DNA of 32,000 nucleotides from Rhodobacter capsulatus SB 1003 (GTDB lineage: Bacteria; Pseudomonadota; Alphaproteobacteria; Rhodobacterales; Rhodobacteraceae): contig NC_014034.1 in the NCBI RefSeq assembly GCF_000021865.1, forward strand, positions 2,490,001-2,522,000. Reading direction: 5' to 3'. Under the pieces are notes generated by a model. It worked only from the letters and a program-made list of their open reading frames with translations. It did no database searches and had not been told where the DNA came from. A program made the position numbers and the translations under genes. Positions 9,136 through 26,835 of this stretch are shown one piece after another; position 1 is the first letter of the stretch, and the number at the start of each line of letters is the position of its first letter.

Positions 9136-9152
9136 TGGTCGGGGCGGCGAGA
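9136..9152. repeat. attL core (copy of the tRNA-Pro 3' end)
   Basis: TGGTCGGGGCGGCGAGA is identical to 26819-26835. Sits 5 nt after the erpA stop. Confidence 0.85.
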
Positions 9153-9225
9153 ACATAATAATGTTTTCGCCAAGCCCTTATTTTCCCCTAACAATATGCA
9201 AAACATTGACTTTTCGGCCTCAATC

Positions 9226-9247
9226 TGTAACACATGGATGTAACACA
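9226..9247 (+). promoter_or_regulatory. two direct copies of the TGTAACACA motif (candidate integrase arm-type or regulator sites), overlapping a possible int promoter
   Basis: TGTAACACA-tgga-TGTAACACA, 74-95 bp from the att core. TTGACT at 9206-9211 lies 16 bp upstream of TAACAC. Confidence 0.5.
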
Positions 9248-9271
9248 CAACCCTTCCACTTGGTGCATTTC

Positions 9272-11080
9272 ATGGCGCGCATTAGCCACCTCATCCGGCG
9301 CGGTTCTGCCTATTCAGCGCGAATCCGCGTCCCCCTAGATCTGGTCGAAACCCTCGGAAAGCGTGAGCTGGTGAAAGCACTTGGCACGAATGACGAGGCC
9401 GAGGCGAAGCGGCGGCTCTATCCGGTGCTGTCCAACTGGCAACGCGAGTTCGACGACCTTCGGACCCGCAAGGCCCTGGTGCCTGCCGACCGTGACCATG
9501 CCGTTTGGGACCATTACACCACCACCTTGGCCCGCGACGAAGCCGACCGGGCCGCCCTGCCCTCGCCCGCGCAGATCGAGGCAGAGAAGACGAAGCTTGT
9601 CGAAAAGGCGCAGCGCGGCGAGATCAAGGACGCCGAGCCGCTGACAATTCTGGACGCGACCCTTGATCTTCAAGTGATGCAGCGCGCCGGTGAAGTCTCG
9701 GCCCATGCGCGCGAGGCGAAGCTGAAAGACATGCGGAAGCACCTCATTGAAGGCAACACCGCTCTTATCGCGCATGAGGTGAACGCCTACCTGCACAACA
9801 ATCGCCTTTTGGTCGAACCCGGAACGCCGGATTGGATCAGCCTCGCCCGGCACATGATGCGGGCAGAGATCGAAGCGCTTCAACGCACCCTTGAGCGTGA
9901 CCGGGGCGATTACACCGGCCACCCGTCCGACCCGATCGTGAAGCCGCCCACCGGCGGGCGCCGTGAGTTCGCCAAGCCCGGCGAGACGATCATGGAAGTC
10001 TTCGAGACGTTTGCGAGCGAAAACCCGAACAGGGTGACGCCCGACCGGCTCAATCAGATCAGGCGCGACATCGGCATCTTTGTCGAAGTCGTGGGGGCGG
10101 GCTTTCCGGTTCATGCGATCGACAAGATGGCCGTTCGCGATTGGAAGGCCCTTCTGGTGAAGTATCCGATCCGGGCAACCGAGGTGAAGGACTTCAAGGG
10201 CATGACAATTCGGCAGATCGTGAAGGCGAACGAAAAGCTCGGGCGGCCCAAGTTGTCCGACCGCACCGTGAACCGTTACCTGTCGAGCCTTGGTGCCTTC
10301 TGCAATTGGCTTGTCGAGAATGGCTATCTGGCACAGAACCCCGTGTCGCGCATGGCCCTTAAGAAAGAGAAGAACTCAAAGACCTTCACCTTCACGTCCG
10401 ATCAGTTGAACACGCTGTTCAAGTCGCCGCTCTTCACCGGGGCGCAAAGCGACAAGGAAGGCGAATGGCGCTATATCTCCCGGCCCGGCAAGGTGCTGAT
10501 CCGCGACCACCGCTATTGGGTGCCCCTGATCATGCTGTTCAGCGGCGCAAGGAATGGCGAGATCGGCCAGCTTGCGACAAGTGACGTGCGCGAGCTGCAC
10601 GGCCACTGGATTTTCCACATTACCACCGAGGGCGAACAGACCGAGCAAGGCAAGTCGGTCAAGACCGAAGGTTCCATGCGGGTGCTGCCCATTCACCCCG
10701 AGCTGATCCGCCTCGGCTTCCTGCAATACCACGCGGAACGGGTGAAGGCGGGCGACAAGCAACTTTTCCCCGGCGCCAAGCGCAACGAACGGGGGCAGAT
10801 GATGGCCGAATTCTCGCGCGAGTTCGGCAAGTATCTGACGCGGATCGGCCTCAAGAACGGGCGCGGCCTGTCTCTCTATTCTTTCCGTCATGGCGCGACC
10901 GATGCGCTGCGCCGGGCCGGGTATCTGGACAGTCAGTTCGGTTTCATCCTTGGGCACACCGAGGCTTCGATGACCGGGCGTTATGGTCAGATGCCACAAG
11001 GGATGCTGCAACAGCGCGTGGAACTGGTGAACTCCATTGCCTACCCCGGCCTGAGTTTGGACCACCTCATTCCGCAATAA
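9272..11080 (+). CDS. int: tyrosine-type site-specific integrase (602 aa, extended N-terminal domain)
   Basis: The N-terminus MARISHLIRRGSAYSARIRVPLDLV resembles DUF6538-type integrases (from memory). The C-terminal catalytic region has ...GARNGEIGQL..., SFRHGATDALRRAG, LGHTEASMTGRYGQ (R, HxxR, H, Y). Confidence 0.85.
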   Translation: MARISHLIRRGSAYSARIRVPLDLVETLGKRELVKALGTNDEAEAKRRLYPVLSNWQREFDDLRTRKALVPADRDHAVWDHYTTTLARDEADRAALPSPAQIEAEKTKLVEKAQRGEIKDAEPLTILDATLDLQVMQRAGEVSAHAREAKLKDMRKHLIEGNTALIAHEVNAYLHNNRLLVEPGTPDWISLARHMMRAEIEALQRTLERDRGDYTGHPSDPIVKPPTGGRREFAKPGETIMEVFETFASENPNRVTPDRLNQIRRDIGIFVEVVGAGFPVHAIDKMAVRDWKALLVKYPIRATEVKDFKGMTIRQIVKANEKLGRPKLSDRTVNRYLSSLGAFCNWLVENGYLAQNPVSRMALKKEKNSKTFTFTSDQLNTLFKSPLFTGAQSDKEGEWRYISRPGKVLIRDHRYWVPLIMLFSGARNGEIGQLATSDVRELHGHWIFHITTEGEQTEQGKSVKTEGSMRVLPIHPELIRLGFLQYHAERVKAGDKQLFPGAKRNERGQMMAEFSREFGKYLTRIGLKNGRGLSLYSFRHGATDALRRAGYLDSQFGFILGHTEASMTGRYGQMPQGMLQQRVELVNSIAYPGLSLDHLIPQ

Positions 11081-11157
11081 TATAACATTTCCCTTGCGGC
11101 TGGATTCGGGCATGTGGTATTATTATACCCATACGAGTGCCCCTGTTTTCAGTTGCG

Positions 11158-12363
11158 ATGTTTCAAAAGTTCCTTTCTGCATTTCAGAAAAAGGCGGTGG
11201 GCGTTTCGACGCCTGCCGCCCTTCCGCTGTTTGGGCTTGCCCCGACCCTGACCGGCAAGACCGTCACCACCGAAAGCGCCCTGCGTGTGCCTGCCGTCGC
11301 CTGTGCGGTGGCGCTGATCGCCGAGACGGTGGGCTCGCTGCCCGCGAAGCTCTTCGAGAAAGACGGGCGGGCGAGCGTCACCGATCACGCGGCCTTTTCG
11401 CTGATCCATGACGAGGCGAACCCCTGGACCTCGGCCGAGGCGCTGCGGGTGCAGCTTACCACCGATGCGCTCTTGCGCGGCCACGGCTTCGCCCTTGTCG
11501 TGCGCAATGCCACCGGCGCCCCTGTCGAGCTGCATCGGCTCGAACCGCACATGGTTCAGGTCGAAACCGACGACTTCGGCGAACCGGCCTATCTGGTGCA
11601 GCTCGCCGATGGCCGCCACCGCTACCCCTTCACCGACATTCTGCATGTGAGCGCCTTCGGAGGTGCCTCGCCGATCACGCTTGGCCGCGAAGCCATCGGT
11701 CTTGCCCTCGCCTTTGAAGAACATATCGCCAAGCTCTTTGCGAACGGCGGCAAGCCCGGCGGCATCCTGAAGACCGAAAAGACCCTCGGCGACGAAGCCA
11801 AGGCGAAGCTGGCGACAAGCTGGACGGCGGCGCATGGCGCGGGCCGTTCGGGCGGCACCGCGATTCTGGACGAGGGCATGAGCTATGAAGCGGTGACGAT
11901 GACGCTCGCCGACACGCAATTCGCCGAGAACCGTCTGGAACAGATCCGCGAGATTGCCCGCGCCTTCCGCGTGCCACCGACGATGCTCTTCGAGCTGACG
12001 CGGGGCACCTGGAGCAATACCGAAGAGATGGCCCGGCAATTCCTGCAAGTGACGCTGAAGCCGTGGCTGGCGTCCTGGTCCTGGGCCTATGCGCGCTGCC
12101 TGCTTTCGCCCGAGGAACGCCGCCGCCTTTATGTCGAGTTCGTCACGGACGACCTGACCACCACCGACACCGCCGCCCGTGCCGCCGCCTATGGGCAGTA
12201 TCGCAGCATGGGCGCGATGACCGCCAACGAGGTGCGCGCCGGTCTGAACCTGCCGCCGCGCGCCGATGGCGACACGCTGCAAAACCCCTACACCACCACC
12301 GGCGCCGCCCCTGCGGTTGATCCGGTGGCTGATCCTGCCCCCGAGGATGCCCCGCATGACTGA
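11158..12363 (+). CDS. phage portal protein, HK97 family
   Basis: 401 aa: ...ALRVPAVACAVALIAETVGSLP...NPWTSAEALR...GGILKTEKTLGDEAKAKL...TAILDEGMSYEAV...QFAENRLEQIREIARAFRVPP, the typical HK97-type portal pattern. Start set at ATG 11158 (GTG 11137 is possible). Confidence 0.85.
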   Translation: MFQKFLSAFQKKAVGVSTPAALPLFGLAPTLTGKTVTTESALRVPAVACAVALIAETVGSLPAKLFEKDGRASVTDHAAFSLIHDEANPWTSAEALRVQLTTDALLRGHGFALVVRNATGAPVELHRLEPHMVQVETDDFGEPAYLVQLADGRHRYPFTDILHVSAFGGASPITLGREAIGLALAFEEHIAKLFANGGKPGGILKTEKTLGDEAKAKLATSWTAAHGAGRSGGTAILDEGMSYEAVTMTLADTQFAENRLEQIREIARAFRVPPTMLFELTRGTWSNTEEMARQFLQVTLKPWLASWSWAYARCLLSPEERRRLYVEFVTDDLTTTDTAARAAAYGQYRSMGAMTANEVRAGLNLPPRADGDTLQNPYTTTGAAPAVDPVADPAPEDAPHD

Positions 12364-12676
12364 CCGCATCACCCTGCGCGCTTTCTTTGGCGATGCCGAG
12401 CGCGCCTTCACCCTGACCGACCCGATGCTGACCGAGCTGGAGCGCCTGACCGGCCTTGGCACCGGCGCGCTCTATGCCCAGCTCGTCAACATGGCCTTCC
12501 CGGTGCAGGTTCTCGCGCAGGTGATCCGCCTTGGCCTGATCGGCGCAGGGATGACCCCCGAAGAGGCGAAGCACCTTTGCGCCGCCTATGCCGAGAACCG
12601 CCCGCTGGCCGAGGTCTTCCCGCTCGCCTTCGCGATCCTGGATGCGCGCTGGAGCGGTGTTGAGGTCAAGCCATGA
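12356..12676 (+). CDS. small hypothetical protein, GTA-gp10/tail-assembly-chaperone-like
   Basis: 106 aa: ITLRAFFGDAERAFTLTDPMLTELERLTGLG...VIRLGLIGAGMTPEEA follows the pattern I recall for the GTA gp10 (Phage_TAC_11-like) family. Coupled to the portal stop and the protease start (ATGA). Confidence 0.4.
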   Translation: MTDRITLRAFFGDAERAFTLTDPMLTELERLTGLGTGALYAQLVNMAFPVQVLAQVIRLGLIGAGMTPEEAKHLCAAYAENRPLAEVFPLAFAILDARWSGVEVKP

Positions 12677-14184
12677 CCGACCGGCTCGAAATCAAGGCGC
12701 AGCTCGCCGTGACCGAGGCGGGCGAGATCACCGGGATTGCCTGGCCGTTCGGCTCTGCCGACCGCGTGGGCGACGTGATCGTGAAAGGCGCCTTCACCGC
12801 CCCCGCCGCGCTGCCGATGCTCTTTGCCCATGATCAGGCGCAGGTGATTGGCGTCTGGGACCGGATCGCCGAGACCGAGGCCGGTCTGACGGTGAAGGGG
12901 CGCCTTCTGATCGACGACGTGGAACGCGCCCGCGAGGTGCGCGCGATGGTCAAGGCGGGGGCCGTCTCGGGCCTGTCGATCGGCTTTGTCACCAAGGATG
13001 CCAAGCGCGAAGGCCGGGGCCGCCGGATCACCGCGCTTGAGCTGCACGAAATCAGTATTGTTGCCGTCCCGGCGCATCCGGGCGCGCAGATCACCTCTTT
13101 CAAATCAACGCATTGCAATTCGGAGTTCACACAGATGGAACAAGAAGACATCGCGGCCCAAGCGCCGCAGATCGACACCAAAGCCTTTGACGAGATCAAG
13201 GCCCGCCTCGACAAGCTTGAAGCGAAGACGAACCGGCCGAGCCTGGCCGTGACCGGCGTGCAAAGCCCGATCATGGCCGCCGACGAGGTGAAGGGCTTCG
13301 TGCATTACCTGCGCACCGGCGACAAGTCCGAGACGAAGAGCCTCGCCTATGGCGCCCCCTCGACCGGCGGCATCCTCGCCCCCGAAACCGTCTCGACCGC
13401 GATCATCGAAAAGATCGCCGAACAATCGCCCGTGCGCGGGCTTGCCTCGGTCATTTCCATGAGCGGGCCGCTGCTGCAACTGCCCCGGCTGGTCAACGAG
13501 GTGCAGCCCGCCCATGTGACCGAGACCGCCGCGCGCCCGGAATCCGAGCCGACCTTCGAACAGATCGACCTCAAGCCGCATGAGATGGCGGTGATCGTGC
13601 CGGTGACGCGGGTTCTGCTCGAAGATGCGCAGGTCGATCTGAATGGCTATCTGAGCGCCCATATCGCCCGCCGCTTCGGCCAGCTCGAAGCGCAATGGTT
13701 CGTCAAGGGCAACGGCACCACCGCGGCCGAGGGCGTGCTGACCGCGACCGAGGTGCAGGAACTCGACGCGCCGACCCTGACGGCCGACACGCTGCTGGAC
13801 CTCTTCTATGCGGTGAAGACGCCCTATGCGCAGAATGGCGCGTGGATGATGAACCGCAAGACGATGGCGAGCATCCGCAAGCTGGCCGACCTCGACGGGC
13901 AACTTCTGTGGCAAAGCGGCCTTGCGGCGGGCCAACCGTCGCTGTTGCTCGGCCGCCCGGTCTATGAGGCGCCCGACATGGACGACGCGACCACCGGCAA
14001 GACGCCGATCGTCTTCGGGGACTTCGCCTCGGGTTACACGATCGCCGACCATACCGGCTTCAGCGTCATGCGCGACGATTACACCGGCGCGACGAATGGC
14101 ATCGTCAAGCTGCACGCCCGCCGCCGTGTCGGTGGTCGCGTGACGCCGGGCGAGGCGCTGGTGAAGCTCAAGCTTGCCGCCTGA
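12673..14184 (+). CDS. prohead serine protease (S78/HK97) fused in frame to an HK97-fold major capsid protein
   Basis: Residues 1-150 (LPMLFAHD...GLSIGF...HEISIVAVPAHPGA) are protease-like. Residues about 155-503 (coiled-coil delta-like start, then ...GGILAPE...LLQLPR...MAVIVPVTRVLLEDAQVDL...LLGRPVY...) are HK97 MCP-like. No stop lies between them. Confidence 0.85.
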   Translation: MTDRLEIKAQLAVTEAGEITGIAWPFGSADRVGDVIVKGAFTAPAALPMLFAHDQAQVIGVWDRIAETEAGLTVKGRLLIDDVERAREVRAMVKAGAVSGLSIGFVTKDAKREGRGRRITALELHEISIVAVPAHPGAQITSFKSTHCNSEFTQMEQEDIAAQAPQIDTKAFDEIKARLDKLEAKTNRPSLAVTGVQSPIMAADEVKGFVHYLRTGDKSETKSLAYGAPSTGGILAPETVSTAIIEKIAEQSPVRGLASVISMSGPLLQLPRLVNEVQPAHVTETAARPESEPTFEQIDLKPHEMAVIVPVTRVLLEDAQVDLNGYLSAHIARRFGQLEAQWFVKGNGTTAAEGVLTATEVQELDAPTLTADTLLDLFYAVKTPYAQNGAWMMNRKTMASIRKLADLDGQLLWQSGLAAGQPSLLLGRPVYEAPDMDDATTGKTPIVFGDFASGYTIADHTGFSVMRDDYTGATNGIVKLHARRRVGGRVTPGEALVKLKLAA

Positions 14185-14187
14185 GCC

Positions 14188-14826
14188 ATGACCCCGCTTG
14201 CGCGCAACGAAGAGGTGACTTTGCATCACGGGGGTTGGGCCGTGGTGCTGCGCCCCTCGCTGCGCGCGGCGATGACGCTTGAACGCCTGCACGATGGCTG
14301 GCCGGGTCTTCTCCTTGGGCTCGGGCAGTTCCGCTTGCAGACCGTTCAGGCGATCATCCGGGCTTCGGCGGTTGAACGCAACGCCGCCGAGGCCCTTCTG
14401 GCCTCTTTCGCTGCCGCCCCCATCTCGGCGGTGAAAGAGGCCGTCACCGCGCCGCTCGGCGCGCTTCTGACCCTCTTCCTTGCCCCGATGACCGAGACGG
14501 CCGAGACGGCAGAGACCGCCACCCCGGCCGCACCGAAGCCCTGGGCGGATGCCTATTCAGAGCTTTACCGCTTCGGCACGGGGTGGCTTGGCTGGAGCCC
14601 GGCCGAGACCTGGGCCGCGACACCGACCGAGATTGCGCAGGCGCTCGACGGCAAGCTCGCGCATCTGATCGCGTTGAACGGGGACGAGGGCAACGCCGGT
14701 CCCAGCGGTCCCGCCGGTCCCGGCCCCGACGCCTACACCCCCGCGCGGCTGCGCGAGATCGAAGAGCTGGGCTTCGACCCGGCCTTTGACCGCGAGGGCC
14801 TGCGCCGTCTGAAAGCGATGACCTGA
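14188..14826 (+). CDS. tail assembly chaperone-like protein (G-like N-terminus fused to a T-like C-terminus)
   Basis: The N-terminus VVLRPSLRAAMTLERL is GTA-gp10-like. The C-terminus YRFGTGWLGWSPAETWAATPTEIAQAL matches the phiE125-gp8/GTA g10.1-type chaperone motif (from memory). An ETAETAETA linker joins them. Confidence 0.55.
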   Translation: MTPLARNEEVTLHHGGWAVVLRPSLRAAMTLERLHDGWPGLLLGLGQFRLQTVQAIIRASAVERNAAEALLASFAAAPISAVKEAVTAPLGALLTLFLAPMTETAETAETATPAAPKPWADAYSELYRFGTGWLGWSPAETWAATPTEIAQALDGKLAHLIALNGDEGNAGPSGPAGPGPDAYTPARLREIEELGFDPAFDREGLRRLKAMT

Positions 14827-14828
14827 CC

Positions 14829-15173
14829 ATGCCCCGCCCGCCCCATATCTGCGCCTGTGGCCGCCTTGTGCCGCATGGCGAGCGCTGCACTTGCCAGAAA
14901 GACGCCGACCGCGCCCGCAAGCGCCGCCACGATGCGAAACGCCCCTCGGCCCGTGAACGCGGTTACACGACCGATTGGGAGAAAGAGCGCGCGGCGTTCC
15001 TTGAAGCGCACCCCTGTTGCGCGATCTGCGGGGCGGTGGCGAGCGTGGTCGATCACATCACCCCGCACAAGGGGAACAAGGCGCTCTTCTGGGACCGCTA
15101 CAACTGGCAAGCCCTCTGCAAGCCCTGCCATGACCGGGTGAAGCAAAGGCAAGAGCGAGCGGGCGATGTTTGA
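14829..15173 (+). CDS. HNH endonuclease (terminase-associated, HK97 gp74-like)
   Basis: 114 aa: CxCG...C.C N-terminal Cys cluster, then CCAICG...VDHITPHKGN...NWQALCKPCHDRV, the HNH/Zn motif. Confidence 0.85.
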   Translation: MPRPPHICACGRLVPHGERCTCQKDADRARKRRHDAKRPSARERGYTTDWEKERAAFLEAHPCCAICGAVASVVDHITPHKGNKALFWDRYNWQALCKPCHDRVKQRQERAGDV

Positions 15174-15432
15174 AGCGCCTTCACGCTGGAACCCTGAGCG
15201 GAACCTGTGGCTTGAGGTGCTTTATCGCACGGTGGAAGACGCGACCAAGGGGCCGCGCCATGTGCCCAAGCCCGCCGACAAAGCCCTGATCATGCGCGAG
15301 GCACGCGACTACCTGACCCGGCCGAGTCGCGACCTTGCGATGGTATGCGCCTTGGCCGGGGTGGACATGGGAGCCGTGATTGATCACATAGGCCGGAAGC
15401 TGGCCGGTGGAAGAAGTGCTGCGCCCCGGTGA
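15166..15432 (+). CDS. hypothetical protein
   Basis: 88-aa ORF whose ATG overlaps the HNH stop. Host-like GC and codon usage; no family recognised. Confidence 0.5.
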   Translation: MFEAPSRWNPERNLWLEVLYRTVEDATKGPRHVPKPADKALIMREARDYLTRPSRDLAMVCALAGVDMGAVIDHIGRKLAGGRSAAPR

Positions 15433-15540
15433 TCTGCGGGGCAAGTATATAAGTGTGGAAACTGCCTGACATGTCGCTGTTTGAGTAGCCAAGAGGCGCG
15501 ACTGATTGTAGCCTGATCTGGCATATGATCGGGGATCCAC

Positions 15541-15786
15541 ATGGACAAGAAAATTCCGACCTACGAAGTCATTGCCAATTACTTCAATGAAAGCCCGCTT
15601 GGCCTTTTCGAGTGCCCCTGCGGGGTGCGACACAGGCACGGACTACCGAGCCAACAAGGAGAGCCGGAACACAGGGTAGCCCATTGCCATGATAGTTCGC
15701 TTCATCCTAACGGATACTATATTGTCTGGAACGGCAAGAAGGATGGGGTGCGTCGGAACAAAAAGCTAGGGTGGGTAATCCCCTAG
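15541..15786 (+). CDS. small Cys/His-rich hypothetical protein (low-GC cassette gene 1)
   Basis: 81 aa: ...FECPCGVRHRHG...EHRVAHCHD.... GGGGA RBS 6 nt upstream. Lies at the start of the GC drop. Confidence 0.5.
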   Translation: MDKKIPTYEVIANYFNESPLGLFECPCGVRHRHGLPSQQGEPEHRVAHCHDSSLHPNGYYIVWNGKKDGVRRNKKLGWVIP

Positions 15787-15793
15787 TGTTTTC

Positions 15794-15807
15794 ATTGATT
15801 AATCAAT
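15794..15807. promoter_or_regulatory. perfect 14-bp palindrome between the cassette genes (candidate operator)
   Basis: ATTGATTAATCAAT, in the spacer between the 81-aa ORF stop (15786) and the membrane-protein gene. Confidence 0.4.
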
Positions 15808-15856
15808 TTAACTCTTGGTTGCTAAGAGCCAGCGGCTATATTCAATAGGGCATGGA

Positions 15857-16408
15857 ATGGCGATAGACCAAAAGACCACTCAAGAAAGAGTTAGCAACAT
15901 AGAAAATGATTCTGAGAACCGAATGAGCCAATTTCATGCTTGGCTTGGAATTGCATCTGCGGGTGGCATTGTGTCTCTCTCCAGCTTTGCGGGAGGCTCG
16001 CCTGATCCAGATTATACGTTTGCGCAACTCGTTCCGAGTTATATCTGTTTCTTGTTTGGAATTATCGCTGCCGCCGCGGTCGTATACTCATTATCGCTAT
16101 CGAGATCAAAATTTGCTGAACATATTGCATGCTCTTCAAATCGGGAAATTGCCAATGAGGCAATTCAAAGCATTCCCGTGATTATGAGTTACCCAAGAAG
16201 CATGACTGAAGGCGCAAATGGATCGAGGGATGAACTAATTTCAAAATCTCAGAGATTTCATGACCTGGCTGAACGTTCTTGGAGCGCCCACAGAAGGTGG
16301 TCGATTGTTTCCTCTATGTCTGTTGCAATATCTGCTCTTGCGTTTGTTCTTGGCTTCCTTTGGCCCATATATGTCGTGGTTTTTACGGAGAAAGGACTTA
16401 TCCCTTAA
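15857..16408 (+). CDS. membrane protein with three predicted TM helices (low-GC cassette gene 2)
   Basis: Hydrophobic segments are WLGIASAGGIVSLSSFAG, YICFLFGIIAAAAVVYSLSL and WSIVSSMSVAISALAFVLGFLWPIYVVVF, with a roughly 70-aa polar loop. G+C of hand-counted lines is 35-55% against about 68% in a flanking line. Start uncertain (TTG 15815, ATG 15857 or ATG 15923). Confidence 0.6.
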   Translation: MAIDQKTTQERVSNIENDSENRMSQFHAWLGIASAGGIVSLSSFAGGSPDPDYTFAQLVPSYICFLFGIIAAAAVVYSLSLSRSKFAEHIACSSNREIANEAIQSIPVIMSYPRSMTEGANGSRDELISKSQRFHDLAERSWSAHRRWSIVSSMSVAISALAFVLGFLWPIYVVVFTEKGLIP

Positions 16409-16546: not shown

Positions 16547-16578
16547 TTGACAGGATGTGTTACATTATTACACACGCC
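16547..16578 (+). promoter_or_regulatory. candidate promoter of the head-tail joining operon, overlapping a TGTGTTACA motif
   Basis: TTGACA (16547-16552), 16 bp, then TACACA. The spacer contains ATGTGTTACAttaTTACACACGCC, homologous to ATGTGTTACACACGCC at 26739-26754. Confidence 0.45.
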
Positions 16579-16599
16579 TTCTTTGACGAGTTTTCGAGT

Positions 16600-16884
16600 A
16601 TGCCTTTCGTTACCGTGCCCGAGCTGAAAGCCCAGCTCAACCTCGACCATGACCTCGACGACGCGCTTTTGTCGCACCAGATCGACGCAGCCGAAGCCCA
16701 TGTCGCAAGCTTCATCGGTGCGCCGCTGACCGACCCCCTTCCGGCCGCGATCCGGCAAGCGGTGCTGATGCTCGCCGCTTACTGGTATGAGACCCGCGAG
16801 ACCGCGCAGGCCGGGGGTGCGCCCTTTGCCGTGCCGTTCGGGGTGCATGACATTTTGCAACCGCACCGGGTCTGGGTGGTCTGA
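16600..16884 (+). CDS. head-tail connector protein (gp6-like, Phage_connect_1 type)
   Basis: 94 aa: MPFVTVPELKAQLNLDHDLDDALLSHQIDAAEAHVASFIG...AIRQAVLMLAAYWYETRE, the characteristic gp6-like pattern. Confidence 0.75.
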   Translation: MPFVTVPELKAQLNLDHDLDDALLSHQIDAAEAHVASFIGAPLTDPLPAAIRQAVLMLAAYWYETRETAQAGGAPFAVPFGVHDILQPHRVWVV

Positions 16885-17780: not shown

Positions 17781-17782
17781 CG

Positions 17783-18094: not shown

Positions 18095-18097
18095 AGC
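18079..18097 (+). repeat. 19-bp perfect direct repeat, left copy (flanks the MTase-like gene)
   Basis: GGCGGTGGCCGCATGAAGC, identical to 18717-18735. Each copy spans a ...AVAA stop with an overlapping ATGAAGC start. Confidence 0.9.
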
Positions 18098-19142: not shown

Positions 19143-19204
19143 GGCTGTTCTGTCTCTTGCTTCAATGGCTGGGGGCAGTTTTCCACTTATCTTAAGGACT
19201 TGCA

Positions 19205-19600
19205 ATGAGCGCCATTGCCCTTCGCGGGGTGAAGCCCGCACTCAAACCCGATGCCGAGGCGCTGACGAAGGTGCCGCCCGCGCCCGCCTATCTCTCGCTT
19301 CACGCGAAGGCGGAATGGAAGCGCATCTTTCCGCAACTGATCGCGCGCCGGATCGTCACCCGTGCCGATCTGGCGGGCGTCGAAGCCTATTGTTCGGCCG
19401 TGGGCATCTGTCGGCAGATCGAAGCCGATCGCACGGCGGCAGGCGGGGTGATCGACAAGACCGCCTTCGGCATCTGGAACCGCGCAGCCCAGACCGCCCG
19501 GCAACTTGCTTCGGAATATGGTCTCACGCCGACCTCGCGCGCCCGCATCGGCTCGGCCGCGCCCGAGGATGCCGAAGACGATGACCCGCTGTCGGTGTGA
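19205..19600 (+). CDS. terS: phage terminase small subunit, P27 family
   Basis: 131 aa: ...APAYLSLHAKAEWKRIFPQL...ADLAGVEAYCSAVG...ARQLASEYGLTPTSRARI, the P27/Terminase_4 pattern. AAGGA RBS. Confidence 0.8.
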   Translation: MSAIALRGVKPALKPDAEALTKVPPAPAYLSLHAKAEWKRIFPQLIARRIVTRADLAGVEAYCSAVGICRQIEADRTAAGGVIDKTAFGIWNRAAQTARQLASEYGLTPTSRARIGSAAPEDAEDDDPLSV

Positions 19601-19603
19601 CGC

Positions 19604-21217
19604 ATGACGAGCCAAAGCACCTATCCGACCTGGGTCTTCGACGGCTCGCCGATCGACGACCCGCAAGGCGCGGGCGAGCGGGCGGTGCAGTTCCTGCGAC
19701 GGCTGCGCCATCCGGCCAGCACCGCGCCGAAGCGCGCCTTTCAGCTTGCGCCCTGGCAAGAGCGCATCGTTCGGCGCATCTATGGCCCGCGCGATGCGCA
19801 GGGCGCCCGCGTCGTGAAGATGGTCTTCCTGATGATCCCGCGCGGCAACCGCAAGACCTCGCTCGCCGCCGCGCTGGCGCTGTTGCACTTGCTTGGCCCG
19901 GAACGGGTGCCCGCCGGGCAGATCATCTTTGCCGCCTCGGATCGCGAACAGGCGGGCATCGGCTTTCGCGAAGCGGCCGAGATCATCCGGCAAGACCGGC
20001 GCCTTGAGGCCGTGACCCGGCTTTATGACGCCCATAACGCGCCGAAGGCGATCAAGAGCACCCGCGACGGCTCGGCGCTGAAGGCTGTTTCCTCGGATGG
20101 GCGCGCGCAGCACGGCACGACGCCCACCTTCGTTCTGGCGGACGAGATTCACGTCTGGCAGGGGCGCGAGCTTTGGGAAGCGCTGCAATCGGGCATGGCG
20201 AAGCGCGCGGGCGGGCTGACCGTCATTGCCACCACCGCAGGACGCGGGAACGAAGGTCTGGCCGCCGAGCTTTACGCCTATGCGCGCGGTGTGGCGCTTG
20301 GGCAGATCGTGAACCCCGAGTTCCTGCCGATCCTCTTCGAGCCCGATCCGGGCGCGGATTGGGAAGACGAAGCGCTCTGGCATCGGGTGAACCCCGGCCT
20401 GGCGCATGGCTTTCCCGACCTCGACGGGCTGCGCTCGCTGGCCCGCAAGGCGAAGGACAGTCCGGGCGAGCGTTACAGCTTCGAGCAATTCAACCTGAAC
20501 CGATGGCTCGGGAACTCGCGCGACCCGCTCTTCGACTTCGACACCTATGATGCGCGGGTGTTCGACGATGACGAGGAAGACCTTGAGCAACTGCCTTGCT
20601 GGCTTGGGGTGGACCTGTCGCGCTCGGGCGATCTGACGGCCGTTGTCGCAGCCTTCCATCACCCGGACGGGCAAGTGACGCTCAAGCCCGCGTTCTTCGT
20701 GCCCGGCGAAGAGCTGAAAGCCCGCGCCGACCGCGACGGGGTGCCCTATGAGCGCTGGCGCGATGAAGGGCTGATCCGGGTTTGCCCCGGCCCGATCATC
20801 GACGAAGGCATGGTCGAAGACGAGATCCGCGACCTCTGCGGCCGTTATGACGTGCAAGAGATCGCCTTCGACCCGCATCTGGCCACCCGGATGATGCAGC
20901 GCCTTTATGATGATGGCTTGCCGGTGGTCGAAGTCCGACAAGGCCCGCTGACGATGGGCGCCGCCGGGGCCGACCTTGAGCGCATCGTGAACGGCAAGCT
21001 GGTGCGCCATGACGGCCACCCGATCTTGCGTCAGCACTTCGCAAGCGTGGTGGCGGTGCGCACCGACTCCGGGCTGGTGAAGATGCACAAGGGCCAGAAG
21101 CGCGACCGGATCGACGGCGCGATTGCAAGCGCGATGGCCGTTTACCGCCTGAGCCTCGGGCAAAGCAATGCAAGCGCCTATAACGCCCCCGCCTCAAGCG
21201 GGCTTTTCGTGTTCTGA
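19604..21217 (+). CDS. terL: phage terminase large subunit (Terminase_1 type)
   Basis: 537 aa: ...LAPWQERIVRRIYG...MIPRGNRKTSLAAALAL (Walker A-like)...FVLADEIHVW (Walker B)...and the C-terminal nuclease region IAFDPH...DRIDGAIA. Confidence 0.9.
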   Translation: MTSQSTYPTWVFDGSPIDDPQGAGERAVQFLRRLRHPASTAPKRAFQLAPWQERIVRRIYGPRDAQGARVVKMVFLMIPRGNRKTSLAAALALLHLLGPERVPAGQIIFAASDREQAGIGFREAAEIIRQDRRLEAVTRLYDAHNAPKAIKSTRDGSALKAVSSDGRAQHGTTPTFVLADEIHVWQGRELWEALQSGMAKRAGGLTVIATTAGRGNEGLAAELYAYARGVALGQIVNPEFLPILFEPDPGADWEDEALWHRVNPGLAHGFPDLDGLRSLARKAKDSPGERYSFEQFNLNRWLGNSRDPLFDFDTYDARVFDDDEEDLEQLPCWLGVDLSRSGDLTAVVAAFHHPDGQVTLKPAFFVPGEELKARADRDGVPYERWRDEGLIRVCPGPIIDEGMVEDEIRDLCGRYDVQEIAFDPHLATRMMQRLYDDGLPVVEVRQGPLTMGAAGADLERIVNGKLVRHDGHPILRQHFASVVAVRTDSGLVKMHKGQKRDRIDGAIASAMAVYRLSLGQSNASAYNAPASSGLFVF

Positions 21218-21230
21218 GTGAGTATGAGTG

Positions 21231-23597: not shown

Positions 23598-23796
23598 GAC
23601 TCCACAGGAAGGCCGTGGAGCGCCCTATTGTGCCGGGGGTGGGGTTGGGCCGGAACGGGGCAGGATGGGACTCAGAGGCGCCTTCCTGAGTCTCTGGCGC
23701 GTGCCGCGGTGCAGGGACCGGGAACGGGGTCACAAACCGAGGGAGGGAAGCGGGCGCAGCCCGCGACCGACCGGGGAAGGGAGGCGTGTCGACATT

Positions 23797-23868
23797 CCTT
23801 TCCGCGGTTTCTTATTTTAGCCCCCCTTTATTTTAAGGAGTAAACTAGAAGAGAAAGCCGCGGAAAGG
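23797..23868. repeat. 11-bp inverted repeat (CCTTTCCGCGG / CCGCGGAAAGG) bracketing a ~50-bp AT-rich core
   Basis: CCTTTCCGCGG at 23797-23807 and its reverse complement at 23858-23868. The intervening tttcttattttagcccccctttattttaaggagtaaactagaagagaaag is the most AT-rich stretch of this region. Confidence 0.7.
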
Positions 23869-23884
23869 ATTGCTGACACCTCCG

Positions 23885-24031
23885 CGGTTCTAACCCTCCC
23901 TTCCTCGGTTCTAACCCTTCCTTCCTCGGTTCTGATCTTCTCTTCGCCGGTTCCAAGCAATCCTTCCCCGGTCATAAGCAATGCCGACCCGGCCTGACAA
24001 ATCCGCGGACCGACCAGAATACCACTTGACG
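23885..24031 (+). repeat. 21-bp phased iteron array (5 clear units, 2 degenerate), running into the RHH promoter
   Basis: The units are CGGTTCTAACCCTCCCTTCCT, CGGTTCTAACCCTTCCTTCCT, CGGTTCTGATCTTCTCTTCGC, CGGTTCCAAGCAATCCTTCCC, CGGTCATAAGCAATGCCGACC, CGGCCTGACAAATCCGCGGAC and CGACCAGAATACCACTTGACG. Inverted iteron-like AACCGAGGGAGGGAAG and ACCGGGGAAGGGAGG lie at about 23735-23785. Confidence 0.7.
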
Positions 24032-24055
24032 CGTATACGCGTATCGCGGTATATT
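24026..24055 (+). promoter_or_regulatory. sigma70-like promoter with an embedded 14-bp perfect palindrome (operator candidate)
   Basis: TTGACG (24026-31), 18 bp, then TATATT (24050-55). ACGCGTATACGCGT (24029-24042) overlaps the -35 and spacer. Sits 37 bp upstream of the RHH gene start. Confidence 0.6.
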
Positions 24056-24091
24056 GCGGGCAATGAGAACCTAGCCCCTAAAGGACACAAG

Positions 24092-24538
24092 ATGGCTTAC
24101 ATGTTGAGATTGCCCGACGAACGCGGCGCGCAACTGCGTCAAATCGCGGAAAAGAAGAACACGACCGTGAGTGAGCTGATCACCGATTACATCCGTTCGG
24201 AGATCAAAGCTGGCACCATTCCGAGCAACATCCCCGGTATCAATGTCGCCAAGGCGGGCGAAAGCATCGCCATTTCCGCGCCCGGCTTCGAGGCGAGCGT
24301 TCCGGCGCATAAAGGCCAGACCCTCGCGGACCTGCTGCGCAAATCCGCGGCCCTGACCCCCTCGGCCTTCGAGCACAAGAAGGAATGGCTCGAAGGCATC
24401 GCCGCTCTGAGCGGCATCAAGTTGAAACGCATGGGCGCAGGCGTGCGCATCGTGTCGCCGATCACAGGGGCAGAATACCCGCTCGCCTCTGGTGTGGCCG
24501 AAGACCTCGCGAGCGAAATCGAACGCGCTGCCAAATAA
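24092..24538 (+). CDS. ribbon-helix-helix (CopG/Arc-like) DNA-binding protein with a ~100-aa C-terminal extension
   Basis: The N-terminus MAYMLRLPDERGAQLRQIAEKKNTTVSELITDYIRSEI fits a beta-strand/helix/helix RHH pattern. AAGGA RBS 6 nt upstream of ATG 24092. Confidence 0.6.
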   Translation: MAYMLRLPDERGAQLRQIAEKKNTTVSELITDYIRSEIKAGTIPSNIPGINVAKAGESIAISAPGFEASVPAHKGQTLADLLRKSAALTPSAFEHKKEWLEGIAALSGIKLKRMGAGVRIVSPITGAEYPLASGVAEDLASEIERAAK

Positions 24539-24604
24539 GAACAGGGGCGAGCGCGGCAGCGCTCACCCCCTGAATGCGTCCCTCTATGACCTTCAAAAGA
24601 TACC

Positions 24605-25285
24605 ATGTGCGCTGACACTACCAAAGCCCCGACCCTGAGCTTGACCCCCTATGCTGGCCAATCTGACGAAGAGATTGCGGCGTGGTTTCGCTGGAAATAC
24701 CCCAAAGGCAAGACAGACAAATCTTCCGGGGCCTATGCGGCCGCACTCTACAAATCGCGACCGGGCCGCGACGATCCGGCCGCCGAAAATGACTGGTATA
24801 CCCGCCTCACCGAAGCGCAGCGTGCCATCCTGGACGACGCAAAGCGCGTGAAGGGCGCCGCAGCGGACGAAAAGAAGCGCATCGAGTTTCGGGACAAATA
24901 CAAGCTGAGCGACGAGGAAAGCCGCAAATACTGGGCGCTTCGTGACCTGCCACCCGTGGGCGGCAAGAGGGTGGAATGGGACCGGGCGCGGGATATGTTG
25001 CGAAGACGCAAGAGCGCCAAGCCTCGGCAGAACGAAGACCTCTCGAAAATGACACCCGCCGAGCGGGAGAAACACCGCCGCAAACAGAAGACCGAGGCCA
25101 AGCAACGCGAGCGCGCGCGGAAGAAAGCCGAAGAGGCGGCGGCGGCCCTCGGCGCCCCAGCCACCGCCGTTGCGTCAACTCAGGTCGCGCCGAGCGACGA
25201 AATCACCGCGTTGCTTGCAGTTCTCGAAGCGGCCGAGGCCGCCGAGATCGCCGCTGAGCGTGAAGAAATGGCCCGGAATAGCTAG
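24605..25285 (+). CDS. highly charged/basic hypothetical protein
   Basis: 226-aa ORF with a Lys/Arg/Glu-rich centre (RRRKSAKPRQ...REKHRRKQKTEAKQRERARKK). No family recognised; weak RBS. Confidence 0.5.
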   Translation: MCADTTKAPTLSLTPYAGQSDEEIAAWFRWKYPKGKTDKSSGAYAAALYKSRPGRDDPAAENDWYTRLTEAQRAILDDAKRVKGAAADEKKRIEFRDKYKLSDEESRKYWALRDLPPVGGKRVEWDRARDMLRRRKSAKPRQNEDLSKMTPAEREKHRRKQKTEAKQRERARKKAEEAAAALGAPATAVASTQVAPSDEITALLAVLEAAEAAEIAAEREEMARNS

Positions 25286-25323
25286 GTAGCCATATAGCTA
25301 AGTATTTGACAAAAAAGACTTCC

Positions 25324-25353
25324 TTGACGGCGAAATCCGATCGCGGCTAGATT
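25324..25353 (+). promoter_or_regulatory. sigma70-like promoter candidate
   Basis: TTGACG (25324-29), 18 bp, then TAGATT (25348-53), the same geometry as the 24026 promoter. An extra TTGACA lies at 25306-11, and a 7-bp hairpin CCGGGGG/CCCCCGG lies in the leader. Confidence 0.45.
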
Positions 25354-25385
25354 CCGGGGGTAAACCAACCCCCGGAGCATCACCA

Positions 25386-25547
25386 ATGCCGACTTTCATT
25401 GACGACAACGCTTACACCCGCCTTTTGTTTGATCTGCGCATGGCCGCGCGGGCCGCCGACTGGGAAACGGCCCTGACCGAAGTTCTCTGTGACGCAAACA
25501 TCCTGCCCGCTACGTGCCGAGGGGAGATTGAGATCACGGCTTCGTGA
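25386..25547 (+). CDS. small hypothetical protein (53 aa; below ORF-track cutoff)
   Basis: GGAG lies 9 nt upstream of ATG 25386. Translates MPTFIDDNAYTRLLFDLRMAARAADWETALTEVLCDANILPATCRGEIEITAS. Sits downstream of the 25324 promoter. Confidence 0.4.
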   Translation: MPTFIDDNAYTRLLFDLRMAARAADWETALTEVLCDANILPATCRGEIEITAS

Positions 25548-25575
25548 TCAATCCAGACAAACTTTCCTGTGGTCG

Positions 25576-25609
25576 CCGTTATCGTTTCCCCTTATGGAAA
25601 CGATAACGG
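25576..25609 (+). promoter_or_regulatory. perfect 14-bp-stem palindrome/hairpin upstream of the 170-aa ORF
   Basis: CCGTTATCGTTTCC-ccttat-GGAAACGATAACGG with no T tract after it. It is immediately followed by a GGAGAGAGAG RBS and ATG 25624. Confidence 0.6.
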
Positions 25610-25623
25610 AAGCGGAGAGAGAG

Positions 25624-26136
25624 ATGGCCAAGTCAAACGCTGAACGACTGCGCGCTTTCAAAGAGCGCAAGAAAGAGAAAGAGAAAGTCGCGAGCCTGAC
25701 CCTCGACGGTGTTTTCAAAACCCCGTTCTTCGAGACGCTGCCCCCTGACTACGATACAGAGTCGCAGTTCGCGGACAGCTTCGAGTTCATCGGCCTGCCG
25801 ACGCCGGTCTTCAATGACGACCTCGGGATTGAGCATCACACGCTCTACAGCGATGAATCCGCTGCCGAGCTGTTTGAACTGAACCGCCGCTCGCTCGGCC
25901 GTGCCGAGATGATGATCACAGCGCTGAACGAAGCCGCCGAAAACCTCGCGTTCTACGTCAATAAATACAAGCGCACCGAGATCAAAGCGCGCCTCGCCGA
26001 GATCGAAGCCTCCGATCTGTCAGACCCCGAAACGAAAAGAGCCGCGCTGAAAAACGCCGCGCGGCTGAACAAGATGCTCGAACAGCTTGATAAGCAGGTT
26101 CGGCTGACCTTTCCCCAGTGGAAGGTGACAGGCTGA
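25624..26136 (+). CDS. hypothetical protein
   Basis: 170 aa from ATG 25624 (strong GGAGAGAGAG RBS). Basic N-terminus (KSNAERLRAFKERKKEKEK) and helical C-terminus. No family recognised. Confidence 0.55.
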   Translation: MAKSNAERLRAFKERKKEKEKVASLTLDGVFKTPFFETLPPDYDTESQFADSFEFIGLPTPVFNDDLGIEHHTLYSDESAAELFELNRRSLGRAEMMITALNEAAENLAFYVNKYKRTEIKARLAEIEASDLSDPETKRAALKNAARLNKMLEQLDKQVRLTFPQWKVTG

Positions 26137-26245
26137 AAGCAGCCCTGAACCGTCAACCTGCGCCCGGTTCAGTAACGACAAGAGCGGTCAATCGACCAAA
26201 ACCGCCCGCTCTTGCCGTGTAGCAGACATAAAAGAGGAGACTGCT

Positions 26246-26638
26246 ATGAAAGCTCATAGCACGAATGCCGCTCACGCGGCCAACAAAAAAGCTTCCGGCT
26301 TTCAGCTGATCGAAGTTCTTCTTTACGGTATCGCCTGCATTCAGTCGCTGCCGAAAGAGCAACAAGAGCGCGAGAAGATGCTTGAGATGTGCAAGATCGC
26401 GCGGCTTAGAGATACACCGACGCTCGCCCTTACTCTCTGGGGTATCGAAACTCTCATCGGCCGCGAGATCGACCTTTGGCCTGCTGGCGGCGGCTTCCGC
26501 TTCGACGGCGCCTACTCCGACGAAGAGCTTGATCAAGAAGCCGCCGTCCGCGCTGAGATCAAACAGCGCAAAGAGCGGTTCGAAGAGACCGGCGCCCTGA
26601 TCGACGCGCCCCCCTCCGATGTGATCAGGTTCTTCTGA
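26246..26638 (+). CDS. hypothetical protein
   Basis: 130-aa ORF with a strong AGAGGAG RBS 6 nt upstream. A Rho-independent terminator follows. No family recognised. Confidence 0.55.
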   Translation: MKAHSTNAAHAANKKASGFQLIEVLLYGIACIQSLPKEQQEREKMLEMCKIARLRDTPTLALTLWGIETLIGREIDLWPAGGGFRFDGAYSDEELDQEAAVRAEIKQRKERFEETGALIDAPPSDVIRFF

Positions 26639-26676
26639 CGCGAAGCGACCGCTGCCCCATCAAGAACGATAGAGCC

Positions 26677-26703
26677 GGGCGAGGTGAAAACCTCGCCCGT
26701 TTT
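26677..26703 (+). terminator. Rho-independent terminator
   Basis: GGGCGAGG-tgaaaa-CCTCGCCC followed by GTTTT. Confidence 0.7.
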
Positions 26704-26737
26704 CATGTCACAGGCGAGTCGGCCCAACCGGAAAGCC

Positions 26738-26769
26738 CATGTGTTACACACGCCTGACTGTAACACATG
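26738..26769. promoter_or_regulatory. 11-bp perfect inverted repeat carrying two TGTAACACA motifs (candidate arm-type or regulator site next to attR)
   Basis: CATGTGTTACA-cacgcctgac-TGTAACACATG, 50-80 bp from the att core. Confidence 0.55.
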
Positions 26770-26818
26770 GCCGACTGAGCTGCCACCTAAGCCATTGAAT
26801 ATAAAGGGAAATTCGGAT

Positions 26819-26835
26819 TGGTCGGGGCGGCGAGA
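26819..26835. repeat. attR core (the 3' end of tRNA-Pro)
   Basis: TGGTCGGGGCGGCGAGA, identical to 9136-9152. Confidence 0.85.

Follow-up and report, generated by a model that had tools for sequence, protein, structure and literature searches.

An island of 17.7 kb lies between erpA and a tRNA-Pro(UGG) gene in the stretch of Rhodobacter capsulatus SB 1003 DNA analysed here, which covers 32,000 nucleotides (contig NC_014034.1, positions 2,490,001 to 2,522,000) and is hereafter called the window. On balance, the island is probably an intact member of a large, apparently undescribed family of alphaproteobacterial satellites that integrate into the chromosome, form their own capsids, and use borrowed tail subunits. 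In our best reading, this type of satellite evolved independently of other capsid-forming satellites. No paper describing the family was found, and no searchable paper mentions the genes of the island.

The island is inserted site-specifically into the 3' end of the tRNA-Pro gene. The window contains just two copies of the 17-mer TGGTCGGGGCGGCGAGA, one at 9136-9152 and the other at 26819-26835; none of 100 shuffles yielded two. ARAGORN finds a single tRNA in the window, tRNA-Pro(tgg), at 26819-26895. Because this tRNA is on the minus strand, the right copy of the repeat is the reverse complement of its 3' end, including the CCA. The left copy begins after a spacing of 4 nucleotides from the stop codon of erpA (Fe-S_biosyn, 8802-9131). 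Exact protein look-ups assign the window to SB 1003, with accessions from ADE86055 (erpA) through ADE86074. An empty attachment (att) site, attB, consisting of the erpA stop codon, AGGA and tRNA-Pro, is present in two R. capsulatus genomes (GCA_052363435.1 and GCA_000506545.2), and in both it is followed by the genes of the window's right flank (DUF192, CSD, PNPOx, adh_short and LysE). Several further R. capsulatus strains carry the island. Because the site is empty in two genomes and occupied in others, the insertion is exact, with a duplication of 17 bp, and varies among strains of the species. An earlier note on this DNA, made from its letters alone and here called the original prediction, had proposed a tRNA-Pro island of this size bounded by a perfect 17-bp repeat, and had suggested that an empty erpA/tRNA-Pro junction be sought in related genomes. 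The repeat search and ARAGORN agree with the proposal, and the two genomes above supply the junction.

Open reading frames (ORFs) of the island were annotated against the Pfam, PHROGs and NCBIfam profile libraries. Their order is portal, tail assembly chaperone (TAC), protease/capsid, TAC, HNH, cargo, neck, small terminase (TerS), large terminase (TerL) and tape measure protein (TMP). The features are listed below, with the supporting evidence in parentheses. Loci compared with the island are cited by number (L077 and so on), and RcapNL is a siphophage that is co-resident in SB 1003 as a prophage.

9136-9152, no strand: attL, a 17-bp copy of the tRNA-Pro 3' end (repeat search; empty site in locus L077)
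9272-11080, plus strand: tyrosine integrase of 602 amino acids (aa) with an N-terminal DUF6538 (DUF6538, 5.8e-19; Phage_integrase, weak, 7e-6; XerC/D-like)
11158-12363, plus strand: portal protein (Phage_portal, 2.5e-94)
12356-12676, plus strand: TAC of the gene transfer agent (GTA) gp10 type, G-like, between the portal and protease genes (PF11836, 8.5e-27)
12673-14184, plus strand: prohead serine protease S78 fused to an HK97-fold major capsid protein (Phage_capsid, 1.4e-72; Peptidase_S78, 7e-24)
14188-14826, plus strand: second TAC, 212 aa, with TAC_6 at residues 124-156 (Pfam PF09550, PHROGs, AlphaFold2, Foldseek)
14829-15173, plus strand: HNH endonuclease, a packaging accessory of P27/HK97-type terminases (HNH, 2e-6)
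15166-15432, plus strand: small conserved ORF without a family match, found in approximately half of the members of subfamily A (family mapping)
15541-16408, plus strand: low-GC (48%) cargo slot with ORFs of 81 and 197 aa (GC content, family comparison)
16555-16884, plus strand: head-tail adaptor, gp6-like (Phage_connect_1, 2.8e-15; TIGR01560)
16886-17365, plus strand: HK97 gp10-like neck protein (PF04883, 5.6e-10; TIGR01725)
17358-17780, plus strand: tail completion/terminator protein, SPP1 gp17, DUF3168 family (PF11367, Tail_completion_gp17, 8.5e-15)
17768-18094, plus strand: head closure protein, SPP1 gp16 family (Phage_HCP, 3.1e-16; TIGR01563)
18091-18732, plus strand: DNA methyltransferase-like accessory gene (phrog_757, 2.5e-57)
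18738-19241, minus strand: moron, the sole minus-strand ORF of the island, with weak likeness to RcapNL gp12 (E 6e-5; coding signal in third-position GC content, GC3)
19205-19600, plus strand: TerS, P27 family (Terminase_4, 5e-21; TIGR01558)
19604-21217, plus strand: TerL (Pfam; at most 33% identity to any phage TerL)
21228-23597, plus strand: TMP, 789 aa (phrog_10574, 3.1e-119, residues 8-773; lambda TMP C-domain, NCBIfam)
23598-24091, no strand: noncoding control region, candidate cohesive-end site (cos), replication origin (ori) or operator (inverted repeat, direct repeats, promoter-like site)
24092-24538, plus strand: candidate regulator of ribbon-helix-helix type, 148 aa, kept across subfamily A (profile match, family conservation)
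24605-26638, plus strand: three ORFs of 226, 215 and 130 aa, candidate regulation or replication genes (no library matches)
26819-26895, minus strand: tRNA-Pro(UGG), whose 3' 17 nucleotides (26819-26835) are attR (ARAGORN, repeat, empty-site comparison)

The longest ORF of the integrase begins at 9128; the annotated form is that of 602 aa. For the ribbon-helix-helix gene, the start at 24092 was chosen from the lengths of homologues and the position of the promoter. The 215-aa ORF near the right end has a homologue in locus L029. RcapNL gp12, which the moron weakly resembles, is also a minus-strand ORF, and is inserted in the neck module of RcapNL.

No ORF of the island matched a tube, sheath, distal tail, hub, fibre, holin, endolysin, primase, helicase or CI/Cro family in the three libraries, nor did any match Rep, HTH_17/AlpA or MerR. 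Lysis genes likewise had no match; a match to phrog_1768 spans just the final 65 aa of the TMP. Nor did tube, tip, lysis or primase genes turn up when 55 non-core ORFs from seven members of the island's own subfamily (A, defined below) were searched. Approximately 1,250 aa of ORFs in the island are without annotation. The original prediction had named the integrase, portal, S78-capsid fusion, HNH, TerS, TerL, four head-tail joining proteins and the TMP, and all of these stand, as does its placing of all ORFs but one (18738-19241) on the plus strand; its single TAC has to be replaced by two. It also saw a full capsid and packaging set without tube, baseplate, lysis or replication genes, and asked for profile searches of the unassigned ORFs for such functions. 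Neither the profile libraries nor structure prediction for the 212-aa protein uncovered any of them. Its statement that there is no CI/Cro-type repressor holds in that none was matched, to which the ribbon-helix-helix candidate at 24092-24538 must be added.

The two TACs bear directly on the question of a missing tube. For the product of 12356-12676, a tube identity was considered and rejected: PF11836/phrog_8985 is in places labelled "tail tube protein", but the homologue occupies a chaperone slot. The closest phage homologue, from Rhizobium phage RHph_X2_26 (38% identity), is located between the major tail protein and the TMP, and for this reason we assign the PF11836 protein as a chaperone. 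The 212-aa protein was modelled with AlphaFold2 by using 30 homologues, giving a beta-hairpin followed by helices (pLDDT 82). The top Foldseek match of the model is RcapNL H6WBL9 (190 aa), followed by many tail assembly or tape-measure chaperones. Because of the predicted fold and these matches, the model identifies the protein as an alpha-helical tail assembly chaperone and not a hidden tube. RcapNL gp16, the ORF directly after the RcapNL major tail protein, also has 190 aa, and on account of this equal length we presume that H6WBL9 is gp16. By analogy with lambda G/GT, we take the chaperone with the TAC_6 domain to be the T-like part. Alignment of the two chaperone families with hhalign gave an E value of 0.006 yet a probability of 6%, and a shared G domain is not claimed. 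Searches of Protein Data Bank sequences with both chaperone profiles returned designed helical proteins and noise only.

A search with TerL, by using one genome per species, identified 26 loci whose TerL proteins are 47-98% identical to that of the island. The hosts are Rhodobacter, Phaeovulum, Celeribacter, Mangrovicoccus, Pseudothioclava, Paracoccus, Roseivivax, Roseovarius, Terrihabitans, Cucumibacter, Pelagibacterium, Hyphomonas, and one metagenome-assembled genome of Sneathiellaceae. Gene maps of the family were built from tblastn and hidden Markov model (HMM) matches, because a GC3-based gene caller missed genes in lower-GC relatives (for example, the TMP of L004). In all sufficiently long loci, the common order is portal, x, protease/capsid, x, HNH, a slot, adaptor, gp10, gp17, head closure, TerS, TerL and TMP, where x marks the positions of the two TAC genes of the island. 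This order is kept in every mapped relative (approximately 120 loci), down to a TerL identity of 47%, and cannot be obtained by rotating the canonical HK97/GTA order (compared, for example, with RcapNL). A tRNA or tmRNA gene, located 4-9 kb past TerL, marks the end of nearly all loci, and the genes used are those for Ser, Phe, Thr, Pro, Arg, Val, Gln and tmRNA. Where both att copies are within the fetched DNA (six genome loci, two Logan contigs and the window), the att-to-att size is 17.1-18.3 kb. One Logan contig (SRR25654129, locus L080, 17,099 bp) has an identical 29-bp tRNA 3' end at both termini; this contig may represent an excised circle or else an integrated copy that is broken at the att repeats, and, being ambiguous, it was not used as evidence.

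Further relatives come from other sequence collections. A wider protein database contains 2179 TerL relatives at E<=1e-30; the top 120 of these are at least 64% identical, belong to Rhodobacterales and Hyphomicrobiales, and are in many cases on contigs of 16.7-19 kb. In IMG/VR, all 35 TerL relatives are on contigs of at most 19.2 kb. The best 80 of more than 453 IMG/VR relatives of the PF11836 chaperone were also analysed, and 79 of their contigs are at most 22.1 kb, the remaining one being 30.5 kb; in the pooled set, 114 of 115 contigs do not exceed 22.1 kb. As far as the sequence extends, all 80 chaperone loci have the order portal, TAC, capsid, TAC, HNH, then TerS and TerL, with no tube gene. 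The original prediction held that close relatives with the same backbone in prophages of approximately 40 kb would mark the island as a decayed prophage. Such relatives were sought in IMG/VR, and none was found. It had also remarked that the TAC, the TMP and the gene order fit no class cleanly, and this was well observed: the odd order is a conserved signature of the family.

Selection was assessed by comparing the window with relatives in R. capsulatus SP18, Phaeovulum and Celeribacter. The ratio of nonsynonymous to synonymous substitution rates (dN/dS) is 0.05-0.3 in nearly every core gene, including both chaperones and the TMP (0.05-0.24). Together with the empty site in sister strains and the exact 17-bp duplication, these values bear out the earlier description of an intact tRNA-integrated island. 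In SP18 (locus L001, 1-17550), the structural module is 98% identical to that of the window, the integrase is inverted at the tRNA-proximal end, and the att site is tRNA-Ser(cga). Accession numbering suggests that SP18 and another strain each have two members of the family, one of them with a split capsid gene. Random decay is excluded by the shared order, the many att sites, the uniform size, the purifying selection, and the exchange of integrase and site in SP18. To judge from the sequences, these properties describe a lineage that is actively mobile, under selection, and constrained in size.

Between close relatives, the TMP, head closure and capsid proteins diverge much faster than do TerL and portal. 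For example, identities between L004 and the window are 83% for TerL, 81% for portal, 53% for capsid and 33% for head closure, and the TMP is barely alignable. TMP length among members ranges from 621 to 870 aa. In published phage-inducible chromosomal islands of the capsid-forming type (cf-PICIs), swapping of adaptors and connectors sets tail specificity. The fast divergence of these three proteins may be seen as an analogous pattern that parallels this swapping.

Clustering and HMM searches divide the family into two subfamilies. Subfamily A, which includes the island, has the PF11836 and 212-aa chaperones and no tube. Subfamily B is found in Paracoccus, Roseovarius, Roseivivax, Pelagibacterium and Cucumibacter. 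Its members have a phrog_313 chaperone in the gap between portal and protease, a phrog_5707 protein following the capsid gene, a TAC_18 chaperone following the TMP, and, in the slot between HNH and adaptor, a major tail protein (phrog_158, 6.6e-18) that is often encoded by two tandem paralogues. An HMM of this subfamily-B tube matched no subfamily-A locus. Tandem, diverged paralogues of this kind are seen in L014 (7217-7693 and 7651-8151) and also in L016, L017, L021 and L025; the second paralogue might form a minimal ring resembling a distal tail protein. The non-core genes of subfamily B include regulators of the HTH_17/AlpA-like, Arc, Cro/CI-type helix-turn-helix, MerR and ANT/Rha families. 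No tip, fibre or lysis gene was matched among them, and no ORF reaches the size needed for a hub or fibre. An AAA_25 (RepA/DnaB-like) protein is encoded in one member of subfamily B (L007, 1558-2925), and one subfamily-A member has a 292-aa ORF that is Rep-like by eye (L009, 14758-15633). Members of the family seem to swap replication modules, gaining or losing them.

The slot that holds the tube gene in subfamily B is a hotspot for cargo in subfamily A. In the window, its ORFs have 48% GC, compared with 65% for the genome, and they had no match in PADLOC, Pfam or PHROGs. The 81-aa product is rich in Cys and His, and the 197-aa product has, by eye, hydrophobic segments. The slot in L083 contains an AAA_15/AAA_21 ATPase and a partner gene, and that in SP18 (L001) contains three ORFs of 179, 183 and 391 aa. 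A comparable AAA_15/AAA_21 pair lies outside the slot in L029, beside the integrase. Pooled non-core ORFs of the seven subfamily-A members include the defence-like or toxin-antitoxin-like families AAA_15/21, Beta_protein and SocA, and PADLOC models matched among the subfamily-A non-core ORFs are AriA/Old/GajA-like, NsnB and "beta". The slot ORFs of L001 are the probable source of the Peptidase_M78 and Beta_protein matches in the pooled search. It appears either that the tube gene was lost in subfamily A with cargo in its place or, conversely, that the tube was gained in subfamily B.

After the TMP gene, a noncoding region of 490 bp contains a 35-nucleotide inverted repeat (23786-23820 and 23845-23879), four to five copies of a 21-bp direct repeat (23881-23985, consensus TCCnCGGTTCTAACCCTyCCT), and a promoter-like site (24026-24055) whose spacer encloses the perfect 14-bp palindrome ACGCGTATACGCGT. 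The same gap in L027, L004 and L029 has repeat arrays of its own, unrelated in sequence, with 19- to 21-bp units and an inverted copy. In several members, the TerS gene directly abuts the gene that precedes it. Because the usual place of a cos, upstream of terS, is thus not intergenic, the repeat-rich region after the TMP gene is, as far as its sequence allows, a candidate for the cos, the ori or an operator.

We propose that, on induction, the integrase would excise the island, and that the portal and the protease-capsid fusion would build small procapsids. A T=4 head of the HK97 fold would hold the genome of approximately 17.7 kb; scaling the T=7 HK97 head to T=4 gives a calculated (4/7)^1.5 x 39.7 kb, or 17-18 kb. 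EcCIEDL933, the prototype cf-PICI of E. coli, packages 15.4 kb in 42- to 46-nm heads, and the satellite MiniFlayer, which has no replication genes, packages 17.4 kb in 42-nm heads. Once filled, the head would be sealed by the island's adaptor and head-closure proteins. In HK97-like phages, P27-type TerS, TerL and HNH form a cos-cutting packaging machine, and the island's own set would cut and package unit-length element DNA from a private cos, possibly the 490-bp region. From the conserved 17- to 18-kb size and the private TerS and HNH genes, we infer that the element packages itself.

Tail assembly would be shared with a helper. Chaperones of the G/GT type link tube subunits to the tape measure in tail assembly, and an SPP1 gp17-type protein caps the finished tube. 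The island would supply the ruler and assembly parts, namely, the TMP, two chaperones, the tail completion/terminator protein and the gp10-like neck protein, and the helper would provide in trans the tube (for subfamily A), the complex of distal tail, hub and receptor-binding proteins, and lysis. Tube and tip proteins made by the helper would be assembled on the island's ruler and then joined to its own small heads. Because its sequence retains ruler, chaperones and cap but has no tube or tip, the island probably pirates tail subunits and not finished tails.

Comparison with 50,697 phage genomes revealed only distant relatives: no phage protein exceeds 33% identity to TerL or 38% identity to the capsid, and a megablast of the whole island against phage genomes gave no nucleotide match. 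The best phage match of the TMP is in RcapNL (40% identity over the C-terminal 160 aa), whose two TMP ORFs sum to 747 aa, compared with 789 aa in the island. Protein identities between RcapNL and the island are 23-47%. Since the best phage matches of both the TMP and the second chaperone are RcapNL proteins, an RcapNL-like siphophage is, by these sequence comparisons, the most likely helper in SB 1003. That the island itself is RcapNL or RcapMu was ruled out on comparison.

Several points weigh against a satellite that borrows tail subunits. The case is built from genes, and excision, induction, particles and transfer are predictions. Piracy of tail subunits is purely our inference, and no satellite with a TMP and TACs was found in the literature. 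The island has no recognisable replication gene, although cos packaging needs concatemers. The likeness to RcapNL is remote (27-40%), with no shared nucleotide sequence or cos. Free circular forms were sought among Logan and IMG/VR contigs, but those of element length (17.1-17.8 kb) begin and end at att repeats and are no proof of a free form, and the uniform size may be partly explained by shared ancestry instead of a capsid limit. In addition, some copies do decay, since the capsid gene seems to be split in the copy of one R. capsulatus strain.

This last copy, along with the many phage-essential functions that are unmatched in the island, would also be expected if the island were a grounded remnant of an HK97-like temperate siphophage that lost tip, lysis and replication genes and is kept, perhaps, for its cargo (the methyltransferase and defence-like genes) without moving as a particle; published GTA studies took small clusters of genes homologous to RcGTA, the GTA found in R. 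capsulatus, near integrases as virus-like or decaying. We consider a remnant unlikely. Deletions would vary by genome, yet the same order and size of approximately 17.5 kb recur at many att sites across alphaproteobacterial orders, and purifying selection acts on all structural genes, TMP and TACs included. Moreover, no larger parent is present in the 50,697 phage genomes or in the 115 IMG/VR loci (setting aside the one 30.5-kb contig), and the island is polymorphic, with a 98%-identical copy at another tRNA that has a swapped integrase module. The unannotated 1,250 aa might instead conceal tube, tip and lysis proteins too divergent to recognise, making the island a small but complete temperate phage, and siphophage genomes of approximately 14-17 kb do exist. 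This is very improbable, because the unannotated ORFs are at most 226 aa, are mostly not conserved in the family, and are in regulatory or cargo positions. The TMP is followed by the noncoding region and a regulator gene, with no unannotated ORFs in that place, and the largest conserved unknown is by structure a chaperone. The tube HMM of subfamily B matches no subfamily-A locus, and subfamily B, although it has a tube, is itself without an ORF of hub or fibre size.

A further alternative concerns the source of the missing parts. The island might be a satellite of the host GTA, taking tube, baseplate and lysis from RcGTA (g9, g12-g15 and the lysis genes), which is fixed in most hosts of the family, and not from a phage. 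The chaperone at 12356-12676 belongs to a family that Pfam names after GTA gp10, and PF09550 (the second chaperone) and PF11367 (tail completion) are presumably the families of RcGTA g10.1 and g8. The nearest phage homologue of the TAC is in a tail module that is GTA-like by gene sizes and annotations, and these TAC types are found in the tubeless subfamily, the tube-bearing subfamily having others. The hosts, Rhodobacterales, Hyphomicrobiales, Hyphomonas and Sneathiellaceae, are groups that commonly carry RcGTA-like clusters, but this overlap may be plain phylogeny. The link to RcGTA is drawn from Pfam family names, and the same families occur in ordinary alphaproteobacterial siphophages (RcapNL and RHph_X2_26). 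The RcGTA tape measure is far shorter than 789 aa, and an RcGTA tail would need to be rebuilt on a much longer ruler. Dependence of the island on RcGTA is thus about as unlikely as a grounded remnant. The wider proposal is more doubtful: the family as a whole might parasitise GTAs instead of or besides phages, with RcGTA tube laid on its own long TMP through GTA-gp10-type chaperones, a start on the RcGTA baseplate, and exit by GTA-driven lysis.

Returning to a capsid-forming satellite with borrowed tail subunits, the island is functionally closest to cf-PICIs and to satellite viruses of the MulchRoom type. It shares with cf-PICIs the form of a small integrative island (10-18 kb; here 17.7 kb) bounded by att sites and with its own integrase, and by strong profile matches its own portal, protease, major capsid, head-tail adaptor/connector, HNH, TerS and TerL. 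As in cf-PICIs, there is no holin or endolysin match and no complete tail, the structural proteins are less than 40% identical to phage homologues, and regions of cargo or defence genes are variable. Three features place it outside the cf-PICIs proper. Instead of an AlpA-type (or MerR/Stl) core regulator, it has only the ribbon-helix-helix candidate, whereas subfamily B has HTH_17; a primase-replicase module has no match in the island or in the 55 non-core ORFs of its seven relatives; and the island has a TMP, two TACs and a tail completion gene, and tail profiles are forbidden for cfPICI in SatelliteFinder. Its family also has a distinct, conserved gene order, and the likely mechanism is the building of tails on its own ruler, in contrast to the capture of finished tails by cf-PICIs. 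The cf-PICI papers describe hosts in Enterobacteriaceae, Pasteurellaceae, Firmicutes and others, and do not use the word Alphaproteobacteria. Classical PICIs and P4-like elements remodel or redirect helper capsids, whereas the island itself encodes a portal, capsid, protease and TerL, components of the type whose presence leads SatelliteFinder to exclude a PICI.

MulchRoom and MiniFlayer resemble the island in having capsid and packaging genes, no recognisable replication genes, genomes of 14-17.4 kb and heads of approximately 43 nm; MulchRoom also has a tyrosine integrase and borrows a siphovirus tail. By their descriptions, however, they differ in having direct terminal repeats and virulent, jumbo-type helpers, compared with the HNH/P27 cos-type machine of the island, and in having no TMP, TAC or terminator genes; their Streptomyces hosts are unrelated.

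RcGTA and the island share their host class and, going by Pfam names, a chaperone family, PF11836 (GTA-gp10). We assume that the portal, protease/capsid, adaptor, head closure, tail completion and TAC proteins also share Pfam families with RcGTA. The island is set apart from RcGTA by its integrase and att sites, its variable presence among strains and its relatives at many tRNAs, by its private P27 TerS and HNH and 789-aa TMP, and by a size that fits what its own particle could package. An RcGTA-type agent packages random pieces of host DNA shorter than its own cluster of genes. It has no homologue of the tube, distal tail, hub, peptidase or megatron proteins, so that the g1-g15 cluster is incomplete. 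In the GTA literature, GTAs are large clusters without integrases that are vertically inherited. RcapNL (40.5 kb) has an HNH, terminase, portal, protease, capsid and neck module of the same families as the island, and differs in its canonical order, tube, distal tail, fibres, holin/lysozyme, CI-like repressor and primases. More generally, a complete HK97-like siphophage differs from the island by a tube, distal tail, hub/Tal and receptor-binding protein (none matched in the island by profiles, the subfamily-B tube HMM or structure), by a lysis cassette and replication module, and by the canonical order TerS-TerL-portal-protease-capsid-neck-tube-TAC-TMP, which the island does not follow. In the comparison with cf-PICI, PICI, P4-like and GTA gene sets that the original prediction called for, no class fits fully, and its judgement that the island is more like capsid-forming satellites than a prophage or an RcGTA-type agent agrees with the integrase, att sites and polymorphism and with the lack of larger relatives.

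If this reading is true, it extends capsid-forming satellites to Alphaproteobacteria, in which they would form an independent and very abundant lineage, with TerL clusters numbering over 2,000 and IMG/VR entries in the hundreds. Because tail genes are present, current satellite finders would discard such elements. A graded dependence on helpers is suggested, from subfamily B (heads, tube, ruler and chaperones) through subfamily A (heads, ruler and chaperones) to cf-PICIs (heads only), as is a new kind of piracy in which a satellite takes tail subunits and itself sets tail length. If parasitism of GTAs were true, a selfish, self-packaging element would ride on a domesticated, "selfless" one that almost all host genomes carry as a fixed element. 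Published GTA surveys lump such regions as "small clusters" or prophages, and recognition of the family would clean up these classifications. The island resides in SB 1003, the GTA model strain, where it could confound experiments on particles, DNA packaging and transfer.

We note two observations in the left flank. A RegA ChIP motif GCGCGTAAACGACCC and an FnrL box ATGATCCGGATCAA, both published for rcc02321, are located at 5432-5446 and 5523-5536, upstream of the minus-strand gene at 4026-5231; from the position of these sites, the window is anchored at approximately 2.495 Mb of SB 1003 and the island corresponds to approximately rcc02325 onwards. The plus-strand ORF at 7466-8929 has no family match, and gene calls in other strains differ on identical DNA, where a 382-aa HD/HD_assoc (dGTPase-like) protein is called instead on the minus strand at 7580-8728.

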